Assembly (NCBI GenBank): GCA_964488175.1
Contig: CAZATZ010000001.1
Location: forward strand, 1 to 31,072
DNA length: 31,072 nucleotides
From: an uncultured Spirochaetales bacterium
GTDB lineage: Bacteria; Spirochaetota; Spirochaetia; SP-2023; CAYRNA01
Reading direction: 5' to 3'
The position numbers and the translations under genes are program-made. Shown here in pieces: positions 3,021 through 22,008 of this stretch (position 1 is its first letter; every line of letters begins with the position of its first letter). Below the pieces are notes generated by a model. It saw only the letters and a program-made list of their open reading frames with translations, did not search any database and had not been told where the DNA came from.

Positions 3021-3091
3021 CTCCAACTCCTCTCTCGAAAGATCTATTTGCATCAGAGAGTGACACCGTATACAGAAACATTCTCTCTCTG

Positions 3092-3180
3092 GGGTACCTC
3101 TAAAAAGTTGATTTCAGAAAATAACGAAGATATTTTTTGGCAAGTCAAGGAACTGAAAAAAAGGTTTTTTAGAGGTACCC
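3092..3180. mobile_element. 89-bp MITE-like element with perfect 15-bp terminal inverted repeats
   Basis: GGGTACCTCTAAAAA (3092-3106) and TTTTTAGAGGTACCC (3166-3180); the interior is duplicated at 1-55; no ORF and no clear target-site duplication. Confidence 0.6.
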
Positions 3181-3185
3181 TTTTA

Positions 3186-3210
3186 TACAATACAATACAA
3201 TACAATACGA
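3186..3210. repeat. Pentanucleotide microsatellite (TACAA)4 TACGA
   Basis: Read directly at 3186-3210. Confidence 0.95.
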
Positions 3211-3901
3211 GAAATCACTCTTCCTTTCTAACCCTATCGATCATTTCTGCTCATAAAGGTATCAATTTTTTCGTAATCTCTCCCTGCGATGGGGAAAAGG
3301 GGAGATTTTTCTATCAAGACTCATCGCATTTTTTCAAATCACGCCATAAACGCCACAATGTATGTCAAAATATATATCAAAAATCGAGTGAGAAATAAAA
3401 AGAGGTTCTTTTCACGACTCCTCTTTTCTCTGCGAACTTTCTCTGAGTAGTTCAAACTTCTCGCCCTCTAGCTATCAAATCCTCACTCAACGTTTCGAAC
3501 TCCCTGTCAAAATTGAAACCTCTCTCACTTCTACTCAGATCTGTTTCCTGAGAAATTTTAGATAAAAGCTATCGATGACAAAGCCTCTCATCAAATAACA
3601 TCCCCTATATCTCAGAAATCGCAACATCTTAACGTAAATATCCACGTCAAAAAGAGGCGATTATCCTCCCTTTTTTTTGATAAGACAGGAAAATATACAA
3701 TTTTAATAAATTATCTCATAAATTCTTCCGTTCGCTCCAGTCATTTTCCCTATTTTAGCCACTTCTCAACACAAAAGAGAGCATTTCTGAGATCCACTCT
3801 TATCTCTCGTGCTGTTCTTTCGCATTTAAATCTTATTTTTATTTTCGATCTCAGGAAAGGACTACTTTTCGCTCAAATTCCTCTTCTTTTCTCAAATTAG
3901 A

Positions 3902-3919
3902 CTGGCATGACTTTTGCAT
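3902..3919 (+). promoter_or_regulatory. Sigma54 (RpoN) -24/-12 promoter
   Basis: CTGGCATGACTTTTGCAT versus consensus YTGGCACG-N4-TTGCW: one mismatch and exact GG/GC spacing; oriented toward the CDS at 4047. Confidence 0.7.
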
Positions 3920-3965
3920 TTTAAAACACGACACAAAAGTCAATTTAAAAGAGGAGGAGCAAGAT

Positions 3966-4025
3966 ATGGTGCAACTTCTTCTCTTTTTTAGAAGAAAAAA
4001 GGTAGAAGGCACACTGATACCTTGA
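3966..4025 (+). CDS. Putative 19-aa leader peptide (uORF) MVQLLLFFRRKKVEGTLIP
   Basis: GAGGAGGAG SD at 3951-3959, ATG 3966, TGA 4023-4025, ending 21 nt before the ATG at 4047. Confidence 0.45.
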   Translation: MVQLLLFFRRKKVEGTLIP

Positions 4026-4046
4026 AAAAAAATAAAGGAGACGATT

Positions 4047-5123
4047 ATGAAAAATGATTTTAGAGGGCTAAGAGAGGAAGTCTCTCTCTTGCATGAAAAG
4101 TACAAAAAAGATGAAACACAGTGGCCGATTCTAGAAAAAGCGATTTTCCGTTACTTGTACTTCTTTCCTGCCGCCGTTTTTCACGAAAAAGAGGAGGGAG
4201 CGGAGTTTGCCGAAGAGATATTAGACAAGGTTCATCACTGGGTCGAAATACATTCCGGCAAGGTCCCCTTTGAGCTTTATCTCTATCAAGTGGTGCGTTG
4301 GCGTTACTATGATTATACGAGAAAAAAACGAAAAAAGATTTCGCACTCTCTTGAAGAAAATTGGCATGCGATAGAATTTAATGAAGAGTCTCTTTTTCTC
4401 TCAGACAATAGTGGCTCTCTCTACCTCGAAAAGAGATCTATTCTCGATAATAACGACTGCGTCGCACTCTACTTTAAAAATCCAACAAAGAGACAGAGAG
4501 GGGGAGAGCCAATTGCTATCGAGCCAAACCACCCCATCGAAAGTATAACCGAAAAGTTGCTAGAATACCTGCTGACCTACTCGAAGCTCAACTTAAAATT
4601 GGCGAAAACACGGCTTTTCTGCTTTCTGCTCGATACATTTTCACCACTAGACAATCTATCCCAAGAGTTCATCTCGAGAGAGCTTGATCAGAAGAGAGAG
4701 GCCGTAAAACGAATTACATCCAACATATCAAAAGAGATGGAACGACGAAAGGGGATTTATGACTATTACTGCATCAGGAAGAATCGTCTCGACACTCTTT
4801 TAAGAAAAGAACACCGAGAAGCACCACCCAATAGCGAGAAAATTGAGATGCTCAACAAACGACTGACTCATCTAAACAAAAAAATAGAGAACTGTCACCT
4901 TACGGTCTCTCAAAGCTTTTTAGCACGAGAAATAGGAATTCCTAAAGGGACTCTCAACGCACATCTTAAATTTACTCAAAATTTCTTTTCAAAGTTTATC
5001 TTCTCCGAACACCGAAGCTTGCCTGAGATTGAAAGAAGAAAACAAAAAAATGCTACGCCAGAACTTAAGCGGAAATATTTTCCAGAAAAAAAATTCATCC
5101 AGCGATTCTCTGAGCATTTTTAG
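4047..5123 (+). CDS. Atypical sigma70/ECF-like factor (sigma2-like region plus sigma4-like HTHs)
   Basis: AAGGAG SD at 4035-4040. aa ~51-95 AEFAEEILDK...PFELYLYQVVRWRYYDYTRK resembles ECF region 2 (F.tWL..I.rN...D.lR). aa 288-307 SQSFLAREIGIPKGTLNAHL resembles the region 4.2 HTH. The CDS is secure; the function is inferred. Confidence 0.62.
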   Translation: MKNDFRGLREEVSLLHEKYKKDETQWPILEKAIFRYLYFFPAAVFHEKEEGAEFAEEILDKVHHWVEIHSGKVPFELYLYQVVRWRYYDYTRKKRKKISHSLEENWHAIEFNEESLFLSDNSGSLYLEKRSILDNNDCVALYFKNPTKRQRGGEPIAIEPNHPIESITEKLLEYLLTYSKLNLKLAKTRLFCFLLDTFSPLDNLSQEFISRELDQKREAVKRITSNISKEMERRKGIYDYYCIRKNRLDTLLRKEHREAPPNSEKIEMLNKRLTHLNKKIENCHLTVSQSFLAREIGIPKGTLNAHLKFTQNFFSKFIFSEHRSLPEIERRKQKNATPELKRKYFPEKKFIQRFSEHF

Positions 5124-5141: not shown

Positions 5142-5179
5142 GAACGCCTCTCTCTATATTAAAATAGAGAGAGGCGTTC
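5142..5179. terminator. Perfect 16-bp hairpin between convergent genes, probable bidirectional terminator
   Basis: GAACGCCTCTCTCTAT-ATTAAA-ATAGAGAGAGGCGTTC between stops at 5123 (+) and 5208 (-). There is no classical U-tract. Confidence 0.75.
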
Positions 5180-5207: not shown

Positions 5208-6212
5208 CTAAAAAGCAACCCCGAAGTCTAATCCTGGTTTGACAGAAACTGATATCTCCTTGGAATTAAAAATAGGATTCTGAGTCATAATCAATTTTTT
5301 AGGGTTAACGATCGCATTGTAAGGAGTCGCAGAAACGCCGATACCAATATAGGGTCGAATAAGAATTCCTTGTTTTAGAATAAAGGTATACCCCGCCTCG
5401 AGGGCTCCTCCAAATCCTAATTTACCTATATACTCAGACCCACGTTCTTGGACACTCGGTCCTTGAGACGTAGTTCGGTAAGGGGTTACATTTCCAGGGA
5501 TCGTCAGACCAAAGCTCAATCCGACAAAATAGCCACCTAGCCCATTAACTCCCTTACTAAAAACATACGCTAATCCGATATCAACCAGATAATATTCAAT
5601 ACCACGTTTAAAGCTATTAAAAATGAGCCCTGGCCTTAGAGATAACTGTATCGGCCCAAGCATACGGTCATAACCAATCTGAAAAGCAAACCGACTAATA
5701 GAGTCTGGAGCTTGATCATCAAAGCCTTCAGGAGAGATATTCATGGAAGTAAAGAGCGAAGAAAGATCGAAAAAGAAGGCGTTCTTTGACTGTCCCAACG
5801 TAACAAGATTTACATATTCGATATCACGCCCAAGGAATGTATCGTAAATAGTAATGGCTGCCTTATCATCAGCTTTAGCAGCATCTTTCTTTTTCTTGTC
5901 TTCTTCAGCTTTTTTCTTTGCCGCCGCTGCTTTAGCTTTAGCAGCAGCTTGTTGCTTCGCTCTTTGTTGCTTCGCTCTTTGTTGCCTAGCCCTCTGTTGT
6001 TGGTTCCCTCCTTTGGCATTTCCTGCTTTGGCATTTCCTGCTTTGGCATTTCCTGGCTTGGCATTTCCTCCCGCACGTCCACCACCCTGCGCAGGCTTTC
6101 CTCCAGCAGGTGCTCCCTGTGCTGATAATGTTAAGTTCCCAAAAGGAAAAAGGAGAAGCAGAGAAAGAAAGGCCAAGTATCTCACAGGATACAAGCTGAG
6201 TATATTTTTCAT
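5208..6212 (-). CDS. Outer-membrane beta-barrel protein (8-stranded OmpA/OmpW- or DUF3575-like) with repeat-rich, low-complexity N-terminal extension
   Basis: Signal peptide MKNILSLY...NLTLSA; G/A/P/K/Q-rich tract; alternating amphipathic strands (FAFQIGYDR, GYFVGLSFG, GGALEAGYTF, IRPYIGIG); terminal GLDFGVAF with C-terminal Phe. Start moved to ATG 6212 (AAGGAG upstream). Confidence 0.75.
   Translation of the reverse strand: MKNILSLYPVRYLAFLSLLLLFPFGNLTLSAQGAPAGGKPAQGGGRAGGNAKPGNAKAGNAKAGNAKGGNQQQRARQQRAKQQRAKQQAAAKAKAAAAKKKAEEDKKKKDAAKADDKAAITIYDTFLGRDIEYVNLVTLGQSKNAFFFDLSSLFTSMNISPEGFDDQAPDSISRFAFQIGYDRMLGPIQLSLRPGLIFNSFKRGIEYYLVDIGLAYVFSKGVNGLGGYFVGLSFGLTIPGNVTPYRTTSQGPSVQERGSEYIGKLGFGGALEAGYTFILKQGILIRPYIGIGVSATPYNAIVNPKKLIMTQNPIFNSKEISVSVKPGLDFGVAF
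5949..5993 (-). repeat. In-frame 15-bp tandem repeat encoding QQRAK-type units
   Basis: TTGTTGCTTCGCTCT x2 (5949-5978) plus a degenerate third copy. Confidence 0.9.
6012..6071 (-). repeat. In-frame 15-bp tandem repeat encoding GNAKA-type units
   Basis: Core TTGGCATTTCCT at 6013, 6028, 6043 and 6058 (period 15). Confidence 0.92.
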
Positions 6213-6552
6213 TTTAAAACATCTCCTTCGAGCAACAATACGCTCTTGAAATATTCTCTTTAAATTTTCACAATAATTTTTTAACCGTCGAAACCCCATT
6301 TTGAAGTCAGACAACCACTTAGTAGAGCAAATAACAATCCTCGAGATAAGGAGAGCGTTATTTATAGAAGTTCATTAATAATCGGTAATCAAATACAATT
6401 ATCGGTACGAGAAGAAGCAGACTAGAGAAAGAAAAATTCTTTCGCTAAAAGAACCGTCTCGTAAAAGGGTTGCTAAGAACACCCCCCTCCAGAGCTTCTT
6501 CGTACTCACAGGCGAATCTAAGTTTTCACCTGTTTATCGAAGTCGAAATAAT

Positions 6553-6578
6553 ACATATTCACTCGACATATTCACTCG
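6553..6578. repeat. Perfect 13-bp tandem duplication
   Basis: ACATATTCACTCG at 6553-6565 and 6566-6578. Confidence 0.9.
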
Positions 6579-6776
6579 TTATTCGAATGAAGTCACCACA
6601 CTAGTATTGTAGAAAAAATATCTTTAAAACCAACCTAACTAGCTAAAAAGACCTTCGTCCCACACTTTTATTGCCTAAACAAAAAGACTTACCAACCAGT
6701 GTTCTACTCATTCTACCATTTTTTAACTTTTTTGGGAAGGAGGTACTCTACCGTGAGAGAGACAAAACGAAAAATA

Positions 6777-6792
6777 TGCAATATTTGCACCA
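6777..6792 (-). promoter_or_regulatory. Possible second sigma54 -24/-12 element facing the beta-barrel gene
   Basis: Minus strand TGGTGCAAATATTGCA has correct GG/GC spacing and TTGCA, but TGGTGC replaces TGGCAC; about 565 bp upstream of ATG 6212. Confidence 0.35.
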
Positions 6793-7230
6793 TCTAAAAA
6801 AAATATTTCTTATGAGAGATATAATGAAGAATGACAATGCACAAAAGAAATCAAGTGACGCAATACCATGAAAAAAATAAAGAGAGAGATGAGAAAATTC
6901 GCAGTACACAGGTGAAAGGGTAAAGAAATCCCGCTATAACTTAAGAATTTAGAGGTGTGAAGACAACTTTCGTCTTCTGCATTGCCTATTTGAACAACGA
7001 GCAAAACCAGAGAGTAAAGCTTCAAGCTCTCACTATATCAAAGATATATATGGGAACGACGTATATCGGCGATACATATGAGAAAAGAATTTTATCGGAA
7101 ATTAAAAAAACGAAAAGTTCACATTGAAAAAAAAGAAATTTCTTAAATTCGCACCTTGTGGAAAATTTTCCAAAGAAAAAAACGACACAGACAACAAAAA
7201 GATTGAATCAAACTCATCAATATTAGCTCA

Positions 7231-7288
7231 AAAAAATCCCTTGAAGGTCATTCTCAGAGTGTTGCCATTTCTAAAATTTCAACACTCT
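7231..7288 (-). terminator. Probable terminator of the ribosomal protein/alpha operon
   Basis: 9-bp inverted repeat AGAGTGTTG/CAACACTCT (7256-7264, 7280-7288) about 20 nt after the rplQ stop, followed by a short hairpin and a T7 run on the minus strand. Confidence 0.55.
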
Positions 7289-7309
7289 CACAAGATTGAT
7301 AAAAAATCT

Positions 7310-7716: not shown

Positions 7717-8820
7717 CTATTCACCTTTAGATTTTTTTTGCTGTCTCTCAAGCTCTAAACGAGCTCGAATACTCTCTTTCAAGGCAGCGTAGTCGGTTAA
7801 TCCCAAGTATAAACCACGCTCTCGTAATTTATCTTTTATTTCCATCAAAGATTTTTTTCCAAAATTTTTCGTCCGTGCAATCTCTTCGTCTGTTTTCTTA
7901 ACGAGATCACCCAAGGTAAAAATACTGGCATTTTTTAAACAGTTATTGGATCTAACAGAGAGCTCTAACTCTTCAACTGGGGTAGCGAGGAGTGCCTTAA
8001 CCATCACCTCTTCTTCGTCAAATCCTTTATCGACAACCACCAATGACTCATCAAAATTGATGAAAGGATCCAGCCCCTCTTTTAAAATTTTTGCCGCTCG
8101 TCCAACTGCATCCGTTGGTGAGAGCGTTCCATCCGTCCAAACTTCGAGAATCAACTTATCGTTATCGTTACGGTTTCCAACCCTATGGTCTTCTGTCGTG
8201 TAACGAACCCTCTTAACAGGAGAAAAGAAGGCATCAAGAGGAATGACTCCCACAACGTCTATATATTTCTGATTGACTTCCGAGGGAACGTATCCCCGCC
8301 CCCAATCAATCTGAATATCAATCTCTAAATCAGCTTCAGGCATCGCAGTAAAAAGTTCCTGCTCTTTATTGGTAACAATAATGCCATTCTTCTCTAGGAG
8401 AGCACCCGTTGCAACTCCCTTCCCTTTCCAACCAACTGTAATTGTCATCTCTTCTTTATCATCTGGCAGTGCAAGAGATAATTTTTTTAAATTATTAATA
8501 ACAATGGCTGTATCTTCTACGACGTAAGGAATAGGCTCATATTCGCTGGAAATTCCTACGCTAGGACCAACAAGGTTGCCCCCTGCATCCAATACTTTTC
8601 CAGATCCTTTTTCGCTAAAAGAGGTTATCTTAATCGCTGAAACGGCGTATCCAGGAATAGAAGAGAGTAAGGCTCTGCGAAGTGAATTACCAACCGAATG
8701 CCCAAAACCTCTTTCAAAGGGAGCGGCTTCAAATTTCCCGTATTTATCATCAGATTCTAGCGTTGAAAAAACAACGTTACTAGGTCTTTTAAATCCTTTT
8801 AGCAGATTCTTTTCGGTCAT
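7717..8820 (-). CDS. rpoA: RNA polymerase alpha subunit
   Basis: [61 protein letters not shown]. Start set at ATG 8820 (AGGGAG 6 nt upstream). Confidence 0.98.
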
Positions 8821-8987
8821 TACCAACTCCCTAACCTTTAGTACTTATCACTCAGTATATAGATAAATCGATCCTCACAAAATCAGATTTCGATTTAAAA
8901 GAAAGAATTTCAGCGATAGTGAAACCCCCTCAAAAATTCTTAGTTGGCCTCTTTTTTCAAAAGAACCACGCAAGAGAATCGTCTTTT

Positions 8988-20685: not shown

Positions 20686-21873
20686 CTATTCAATAATCTC
20701 AAGTACCTGCCCACTGGCAACCGTTCTTCCACCCTCACGGATAGCAAAACTTAAACCTTGGAACATCGCAATTGGGTGAATCAATTCGATCTCAAGCTCT
20801 GTATTATCACCAGGCATTACCATCTGCTTATCCGCAGGAAGGACAACCGTTCCCGTGATATCCGTCGTCGTAAAATAGAACTGAGGACGATATCCACTAA
20901 AAAATGGATTGCTACGACCACCTTCGTCTTTTGTTAGACAGTATATTCTTGCTTTAAACTTCGCATGAGGGGTAATTGAACCAGGCTTTGCTAAGACCTG
21001 CCCTCTTTCAACAGCGTCTTTATCTATTCCACGCAGGAGAAGTCCAGCGTTATCTCCAGCCATTCCCTGATCGAGTTCTTTATTAAACATCTCAACCCCA
21101 GTAACAACCGTTTTTTGAGTATCGCGGATTCCCACAATCTCGACGTTATCACCGACGTTGACAACTCCCTGCTCAATCCTTCCCGTAACAACCGTTCCAC
21201 GACCACTAATGGAGAAAATATCCTCAACAGGCATCTGGAAGTCTTTATCGATCGCCCGAACAGGCATAGGAAAGTAGGAATCCATCGTATTCAATAGCTC
21301 GTCAATACAAGCCGTCGCCTCTGGATCCGTCAAGTCGCTCATCGCTTTAAAGGCAGAACCCTTAATGATTGGTGTATCTGCGTCAAATCCGTACTTCTCA
21401 AGACGCTCAGCAACCTCAAGTTCAACCAACTCAACCAGCTCAGGATCCGCTAAGTCCATCTTATTCATAAAGACAATGAGCTTTTCAATCCCAACCTGCT
21501 TTGCAAGGAGAATGTGCTCTGTCGTCTGAGGCTCAGGACCACTATCGGCTGCAACCAAAAGAATCGCACCATCCATTTGAGCGGCTCCCGTGATCATATT
21601 CTTAATATAATCGGCGTGACCAGGACAGTCGACGTGAGCGTAGTGACGCTTCTCTGTTTCATATTCAATGTGGCGAGTATTAATCGTAATTCCTCGCTGT
21701 CGCTCTTCGGGGGCGTTATCAATATCGTCGTACTTCATTGCGACGCCACCACTCTTTACAGCACAATACGCTGAAATAGCGGCAGTCAATGTCGTCTTAC
21801 CATGATCGACGTGACCAATCGTCCCTACGTTTAAGTGCTCCCGTTCCCCTCTTACAAATTTTTCTTTTGCCAT
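20686..21873 (-). CDS. tuf: Elongation factor Tu
   Basis: [47 protein letters not shown]. Start moved to ATG 21873 (GGAGG SD). Confidence 0.99.
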
Positions 21874-22008
21874 CTCACTATCCTCCGAAAGAATAAAAAG
21901 CAATCGCCTTCTCTATATACAAAATAAGAATCCCCTTTCGAAACCTAGAGGGGGAGCATCGGAATACAAAACGAATCCGACCTCTTATACTACAAACTTC
22001 TAATTAAC

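Follow-up and report, generated by a model that had tools for sequence, protein, structure and literature searches.

Does a short open reading frame in the leader of an orphan, sigma-like gene govern translation of that gene, and if so, how? The gene lies in a 31,072-nucleotide stretch of DNA from an uncultured Spirochaetales bacterium, and we refer to the whole of the stretch analysed as the window. A first-pass annotation of this DNA had described a leader ORF (uORF) behind a very strong Shine-Dalgarno sequence (SD1), together with mutually exclusive hairpins, and had read them as a translational switch. The parts themselves are all there. SD1, the 19-codon uORF, the CU tract inside it, the AGAAGAA motif (3990-3996) and the AAGGTA/TACCTT stem lie at the positions collected in Table 1, and a complementarity search confirmed the 11-bp stem, with exactly two G-U pairs, between SD1 and the CU tract. 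Three features had been overlooked: the frame shared by the uORF and the main ORF, the pairing of the CU tract (Y2) with the SD of the main gene (SD2), and a second CU tract (Y1) further upstream.

Table 1. Features of the leader, the main gene and its 3' end, in window coordinates
Feature	Coordinates	Strand	Description
Y1	3878-3893	+	upstream CU tract TTCCTCTTCTTTTCTC; complementary to SD1
Hairpin P	3908-3942	+	TGACTTTTG/CAAAAGTCA; 9 bp, nested between Y1 and SD1
SD1	3949-3959	+	AAGAGGAGGAG; GGAGG at 3953-3957, 8 nt before AUG1; read from the sequence
Leader ORF (uORF)	3966-4025	+	19 codons, MVQLLLFFRRKKVEGTLIP; TGA stop at 4023-4025
Y2	3975-3989	+	CU tract CTTCTTCTCTTTTTT; uORF codons 4-8 (LLLFF)
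R2	3990-4002	+	purine tract AGAAGAAAAAAGG; codons RRKK; other partner of Y2
Hairpin C	3999-4023	+	AAGGTA (3999-4004)/TACCTT (4018-4023); spans the 3' end of the uORF; -8.8 kcal/mol
SD2	4034-4041	+	AAAGGAGA; main-gene ribosome-binding site at a distance of 6 nt from ATG 4047
Main ORF	4047-5123	+	358 aa; orphan with sub-threshold ECF-sigma-like signals
3' hairpin	5142-5179	.	perfect 16-bp hairpin GAACGCCTCTCTCTAT/ATAGAGAGAGGCGTTC, loop ATTAAA; between the convergent genes 4047-5123 (+) and 5208-6314 (-)

The main ORF is a real gene. Differences between strains within it are mostly synonymous (3/4 and 9/13), and it has relatives, if few. A phmmer search of 1.84 billion representatives found two, P0002 (E 1.7e-10) and P0003 (E 2e-4), both 291 aa long and 25-29% identical. 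A word-indexed search of 5.8 billion proteins matched the main protein to itself only, and a profile search, a JGI metagenome DNA pattern scan, a JGI protein scan and GTDB scans gave no further homologues. The family of the sigma-like protein has three members, the two homologue loci being L081 (3001-3876) and L082 (321-1196).

The organism itself is remote from known genomes. Its rpoA (7717-8826, minus strand) is only 52% identical to that of the nearest of 185,579 GTDB species-representative genomes, and we therefore place it in a deep-branching Spirochaetales-like lineage. The window sequence was found in two DNA sequencing runs only, from an invertebrate metagenome; no RNA or Ribo-seq runs were found.

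P0002 comes from an uncultured Spirochaetales MAG. There (locus L081), as in the window, the sigma-like gene and rplQ-rpoA share a neighbourhood and run towards each other. The window differs from L081 in gene order by a 368-aa orphan ORF (5208-6314, minus strand) that separates the sigma-like gene from rplQ; this ORF carries AGNAK and QQRAK low-complexity repeats, and its C-terminal half has no family match. No stretch of the window stands out more in folding than the perfect hairpin between the two convergent genes (z -7.4). It probably acts as a bidirectional terminator and would mark the end of the transcription unit. Downstream of rplQ lies a second non-coding gap of ~1 kb (6315-7309), and within it the segment 6481-6601 is strongly structured on both strands (z -4.7 and -4.6) and matches no Rfam family.

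What kind of protein the gene encodes is less clear. The main ORF matched no Pfam family, even at E values up to 10, and had no Sigma70_r2, r3 or r4 match. Its best NCBIfam match is TIGR02937, the sigma70-ECF superfamily (E 2.9e-4, 20.5 bits against a cut-off of 42.9). The homologue P0002 matches the same model at E 1.2e-7, also below the cut-off, and Sigma70_r4_2 at 6e-4. ECF sigma factors of the PDB match a profile of the three sequences at consistent sigma-2 and sigma-4 positions, at E values of 0.8-2.5 only. AlphaFold models from the single sequence or from the three-sequence alignment reached a pLDDT of 48-49, too poor to use. Because the TIGR02937 and ECF signals are all sub-threshold, the label sigma-like is reasonable but unproven.

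The leader ORF, with its own SD and start codon, is present 5' of the main gene and would belong to the same transcript. SD1 is a strong site. Six nucleotides separate its last GGAG from ATG 3966, its predicted pairing with the assumed anti-SD is worth -11.9 kcal/mol (-8.8 for SD2), and by inspection it outranks the SD-like motifs of the other genes in the window. GGAGG occurs 51 times over both strands, mostly within genes, and we estimate that an ATG would follow at a distance of 4-11 nt about 14% of the time by composition. The window holds three GGAGG-N(4-11)-ATG sites. Apart from SD1, one (15042) precedes a real gene start and the other (21886) lies just within the longest ORF of the gene at 20686-21903, where it may mark an alternative start. 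No sigma-70-like promoter scoring at least 8/12 was found in 3725-3965.

The uORF and the main ORF are in the same frame, and the uORF stops 21 nt before ATG 4047 and 11 nt before the main GGAG. A distance of less than 50 nt from the stop of a short ORF to the main start is the range quoted for translational coupling (PMC13285730), and the 21-nt gap falls inside it. The shared frame also raises the question of whether the two ORFs are really one gene, joined by readthrough or recoding of the TGA or separated recently when a nonsense mutation broke an N-terminal extension. Indeed, there is no stop in the seven intervening codons, and TGA is a rare stop here (2/31 genes). However, TGA ends two genes of the ribosomal cluster, the TGA of the uORF is identical in both sequencing runs (X1 and X2), and SD2 is well placed for a start of its own. 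Moreover, the alignment of the three homologous proteins begins at their first residues and so settles the start at 4047, and the relatives have no extension. Because the N-termini align with this start, the uORF is a separate cistron rather than a severed N-terminus. The N-terminal alignment and the conserved TGA led us to reject the single-gene reading, which we consider very improbable.

Two other readings of the uORF codons came to nothing. An A_AAA_AAG slippery heptamer lies in frame within the uORF (3995-4001), and a -1 shift there would lead to a TGA at 4055-4057, just beyond AUG2; it is probably meaningless, since 26 kb of coding sequence contains six such heptamers in frame. Pausing at rare codons in AGA AGA was also rejected, because AGA is common here, being a major arginine codon.

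How would such a leader fold? For a short leader we assumed a transcript start near 3935 (ends 3935-4080). The minimum free energy fold and the near-optimal folds agree. The 5' half of Y2 pairs with SD1 and leaves AUG1 open in a 15-nt loop, while the U-rich 3' half (3981-3990) pairs with the SD region of the main gene (4033-4041) and encloses hairpin C. That the same fold also masks SD2 had been missed in the first-pass annotation. In the ensemble of the free RNA the probability of being unpaired is 0.13 for SD1 and 0.04 for SD2. When 3969-3999 was forced open, mimicking a ribosome, these values rose to 0.94 and 0.91.

The pairing of SD1 with Y2 is made by CTTCTTCTCTT (3975-3985), which lies within the 15-nt pyrimidine run, and hairpin A, which results, has an energy of -11.3 kcal/mol in isolation. 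The proposed alternative, in which the CU tract pairs instead with AGAAGAA (hairpin B), is sound as far as complementarity goes (-5.3 kcal/mol). In the short leader, however, hairpin B is predicted only if SD2 is otherwise occupied, and only in transcripts that start upstream of ~3865 would it be more than a minor alternative.

Longer transcripts are predicted to fold differently. Y1 is the better complement of SD1 (-16.2 kcal/mol for the Y1:SD1 duplex versus -15.0 for Y2:SD1) and, if transcribed, forms a 13-bp helix (3878-3890/3947-3959). For starts at or upstream of 3865 this helix locks SD1, with hairpin P nested inside it. The uORF then folds on itself, so that Y2 pairs with R2 in an extended hairpin B and not with SD2, and SD2 and AUG2 are weakly paired with 3836-3852.

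It follows from these folds that the two SDs differ in how firmly they are predicted to be masked. The first-pass annotation held that both the SD and the AUG of the uORF are buried. This is borne out for SD1, whose masking is robust in silico because its probability of being unpaired is at most 0.23 for every assumed transcript start. It does not hold for AUG1 when transcripts start at or downstream of ~3885, as the start codon then lies in the open loop; AUG1 is largely paired (probability unpaired 0.28) for starts at or upstream of 3825. Masking of SD2 is not robust. Its probability of being unpaired ranges from 0.04 to 0.42 with the transcript ends and reaches 0.64 with the sequence of strain X2. 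Even so, only one of 31 genes has an SD that is more strongly masked. Sequestration of the main-gene SD by the leader structure is a prediction that varies with the ends of the transcript.

The competition between Y1 and Y2 for SD1 admits a different explanation, namely transcription attenuation. Hairpin A (GAGGAGGAG/CTTCTTCTC) followed by TTTTTT (3984-3989) could be a leader terminator, with Y1:SD1 acting as anti-terminator or with a ribosome at SD1/AUG1 blocking the hairpin. Prevention of a leader terminator hairpin by a ribosome is known as pyrBI-type attenuation. The hairpin has an energy of -11.3 kcal/mol (-16.1 in strain X2), it has four A residues before it and six U residues after it, and Y1 competes for the same arm with its -16.2 kcal/mol. 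Its stem, though, is GA/CU-rich and contains G-U pairs, its loop is 13-15 nt long, and a terminator scan did not call it. We regard attenuation of this kind as unlikely.

The leader is preceded by ~900 nt (3054-3948) that contain no ORF with a family match and are CU-rich on the plus strand; it may represent the remains of a gene or an extended regulatory region. Near its far end is a perfect 15-nt inverted repeat (GGGTACCTCTAAAAA/TTTTTAGAGGTACCC, 3092-3106/3166-3180, 59-nt spacer), just upstream of the start of a 260-aa gene on the minus strand, in a region with z -4.0. At 3650-3680, AAAAGAGGCGATTAT resembles the SD and start region of the main gene, AAAGGAGACGATTAT (4034-4048). Because AAAAGAGGCGATTAT is followed by CCTCCCTTTTTTTT, this segment looks like a weak hairpin with T8, terminator-like on the plus strand.

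A thermosensor was among the forms of switch originally envisaged, and U-rich pairing with an SD does resemble fourU thermometers, to which the pairing with SD2 can be likened. The predicted response to temperature is negligible. The probability that SD2 is unpaired is 0.00, 0.00, 0.04 and 0.09 at 15, 25, 37 and 42 °C, and that for SD1 goes from 0.19 to 0.12 over the same range, so that SD1 stays closed. On this evidence we discarded the thermosensor in silico.

A thermometer acting on SD2 is one variant of a broader explanation in which the uORF plays no part and the leader is a target for something acting in trans. SD1/R1 would then be a decoy or platform for a CsrA- or Hfq-like protein or for an sRNA. 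GGA and ARN-type motifs can be read in AAGAGGAGGAGC, and CsrA acts on the iraD leader ORF of Escherichia coli (PMC5574718). However, GGA is present in any strong SD, and the leader matches no thermometer or sRNA family of Rfam: a search gave nothing at gathering score and chance-level matches only at E values up to 5. Together with its thermometer variant, this explanation strikes us as improbable.

Could so much pairing have come about by chance? In a tract-rich, fast-evolving non-coding stretch, pairing in silico may be promiscuous; the uORF would then lie off the transcript or be inconsequential, and the gene would be translated from SD2. The tests that bear on this were all chosen post hoc, once the pattern had been seen. 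The 121-nt fold is moderately better than chance, with a z of -3.43, and 1/200 shuffles folds equally well; taken over both strands of the whole window, 1.7% of stretches of that length have a z this low. When 3969-4032 was shuffled 1000 times, both SDs were as masked as observed in 0.5% of the shuffles (p ~0.005), and energies as low as observed were found in 0.7% of shuffles of that segment. Complements of the SD1 11-mer with at most two G-U pairs occur at just two plus-strand sites in the 31-kb window, 3878 and 3975, and both flank SD1. This argues against chance, as do the rarity of such double masking among the shuffles, the strength of SD1 and its optimal spacing from the ATG.

Other features of the sequence point the opposite way. 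Purine or pyrimidine tracts of at least 10 nt are ~4 times commoner in the window than in composition-matched shuffles. At least four of them fall within 130 nt at two loci, this leader and a YRYR cluster inside the coding sequence of apbE. Moreover, the pairing partners within the leader shift with the assumed transcript ends. In our judgement the features of the leader exceed what is random, yet they are within reach of a tract-rich genome.

Comparison with a second strain is informative in both directions. Strain X2 differs from the window at five positions in 173 nt of leader (3860-4032), and the changes largely spare the stems. T3908C removes the terminal pair of hairpin P, and A3933G, which both X1 and X2 show, gives the same hairpin one more C-G pair (from -7.9 to -11.9 kcal/mol). 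G3971T and A3974G lie in the loop of hairpin A, at synonymous third positions of uORF codons 2 and 3, and A3974G lengthens hairpin A by a C-G pair (from -11.3 to -16.1 kcal/mol). The fifth change, placed by sub-stretch comparison, falls within the unpaired A-run at 4026-4029. The uORF peptide, its TGA stop and the stem arms are preserved in this other strain (2/2 uORF changes synonymous), a point against chance that carries a p of only ~0.06 for two synonymous changes. The X2 changes are compatible with a maintained uORF and maintained helices, in numbers too small to say more. Against this, the leader is ~6 times more densely changed relative to X2 than the main ORF, which implies little overall constraint, and its density of strain differences is near or above the level of synonymous sites in the ORF.

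Run X1 also contains a second strain, 6-11% divergent from the window at 4650-4810 and 3697-3854; in the latter segment it differs at 9/158 positions. The leader of this divergent strain (3855-4198) was left out of the covariation comparison.

Conservation in orthologous leaders had been suggested as a check, and the arrangement does not recur: neither of the two distant homologue loci has an SD-preceded leader ORF. The SD of the homologous gene is predicted to be open in L081 (probability unpaired 0.61), and the SD region is predicted to be largely paired in L082 (0.18). With proteins only 25-29% identical, the absence of a leader ORF from these loci says little. It sits nonetheless with the dense strain differences on the side of chance. 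Taking both sides together, we find chance a rather doubtful account of the leader, and still one to be taken seriously.

The explanation that we put forward, tentatively and at somewhat less than even confidence, is that translation of the main gene is unmasked by, or coupled to, translation of the leader ORF. The CU tract in leader codons 4-8 would serve as an anti-SD. Its 5' half would sit on SD1 with AUG1 exposed in the loop, and its U-rich 3' half could cover SD2. Efficient translation of the main gene would begin only once a ribosome has loaded at SD1 and passed through the CU tract. Transit of this ribosome would strip the tract from SD2 and open hairpin C; the ribosome would then terminate beside SD2, 21 nt from AUG2, and re-initiation or binding of a fresh 30S subunit could follow. 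Such a device would take its input at SD1: Y1 and Y2, and possibly a factor acting in trans, would compete for this site, and how accessible it is would set the rate. The analysis shows the sequence elements and their complementarity, the predicted energies with their excess over shuffles, and a uORF preserved in one other strain. Three parts of the model we infer: the presence of the uORF on the transcript, its translation, and the dependence of main-gene translation on it.

As for the post-transcriptional switch proposed at the outset, some translational control is plausible, given the masking of SD1, the distance suited to coupling and the uORF kept in X2. The specific forms that had been suggested for it are weak or mistaken.

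A stronger version of the leader-ORF model can be imagined. One CU tract would be the shared anti-SD for the leader SD and for the SD of the orphan sigma-like gene, Y1 would compete with it, and the first ribosome would open both sites, giving a self-reinforcing, switch-like translational gate. We offer this version as a long shot.

How does the proposed control compare with systems already described? The first-pass annotation had invoked rpoS. In the rpoS leaders of enterobacteria and Borrelia, the SD of a sigma-factor mRNA is occluded by an upstream leader segment, and these leaders are opened by Hfq-dependent sRNAs; to our knowledge they have no leader peptide. Occlusion of the SD by an upstream leader segment is common to rpoS and, as a prediction, to the window, but the window gene carries a uORF and, judged by its sequence, is certainly not rpoS. 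The analogy is a loose one, the gene being an orphan with sub-threshold ECF-sigma signals.

Translational attenuation offers a second comparison. The classical ermC model has a free SD1 and an SD2 covered by segment 3:4, whereas here SD1 itself is predicted to be masked. In other respects the leader resembles those of ermC/cat attenuation (ErmCL; PMC5499644), with an SD1, a short leader peptide (19 codons here), alternative hairpins and an SD2 that can be masked. The gene regulated there is a resistance gene, whereas the window gene has no Pfam family and only the sub-threshold signals noted above. No known arrest motif was identified in the uORF peptide.

The closest parallels are the leader ORF of E. 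coli iraD (PMC5574718) and mgtQ-mgtB of Salmonella (PMC8092293), in which translation of the short ORF releases or couples the main gene. Both have a translated leader ORF, a main SD in a stem-loop that overlaps the short ORF, and control at the ribosome-binding site of the short ORF, all of which the leader-ORF model supposes here. There are differences. The stop of the short ORF overlaps the main start in iraD but is 21 nt upstream of it here, and mgtQ is intergenic and dependent on acidic codons. In the window leader, by contrast, both SDs have their complement in one and the same CU tract, and the masking of SD2 is not robust in silico.

Of 15 upstream ribosome-binding sites predicted in Sinorhizobium meliloti, 13 were translated and 9 affected the downstream gene, some of them by coupling (PMC13285730). 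These uORFs share the operational definition used here, an SD and start codon in a leader; they belong to another phylum and were studied by Ribo-seq and reporters, whereas ours is a sequence prediction. Among spirochaetes, the bmpA mRNA of Borrelia burgdorferi has two SDs, and the short leader ORF behind the first of them modulates the main gene (bioRxiv 10.1101/542589). Its leader is likewise in frame with the main ORF in some strains. This leader ORF differs, however, in sharing 8 bp with bmpA and in its reported inhibitory effect, and the genes are unrelated.

The control proposed for this leader belongs to a known class and introduces no new mechanism. Because both uORF coupling and SD masking are already well described, it opens no long-standing question. 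If real, it would show that an uncultured lineage of spirochaetes gates a lineage-specific, sigma-like regulator after transcription. The switch-like gate, were it true, would sit on a lineage-specific transcription factor of a deep-branching, invertebrate-associated spirochaete. More generally, the leader would be a further example of strong-SD leader ORFs as common control devices in bacteria.
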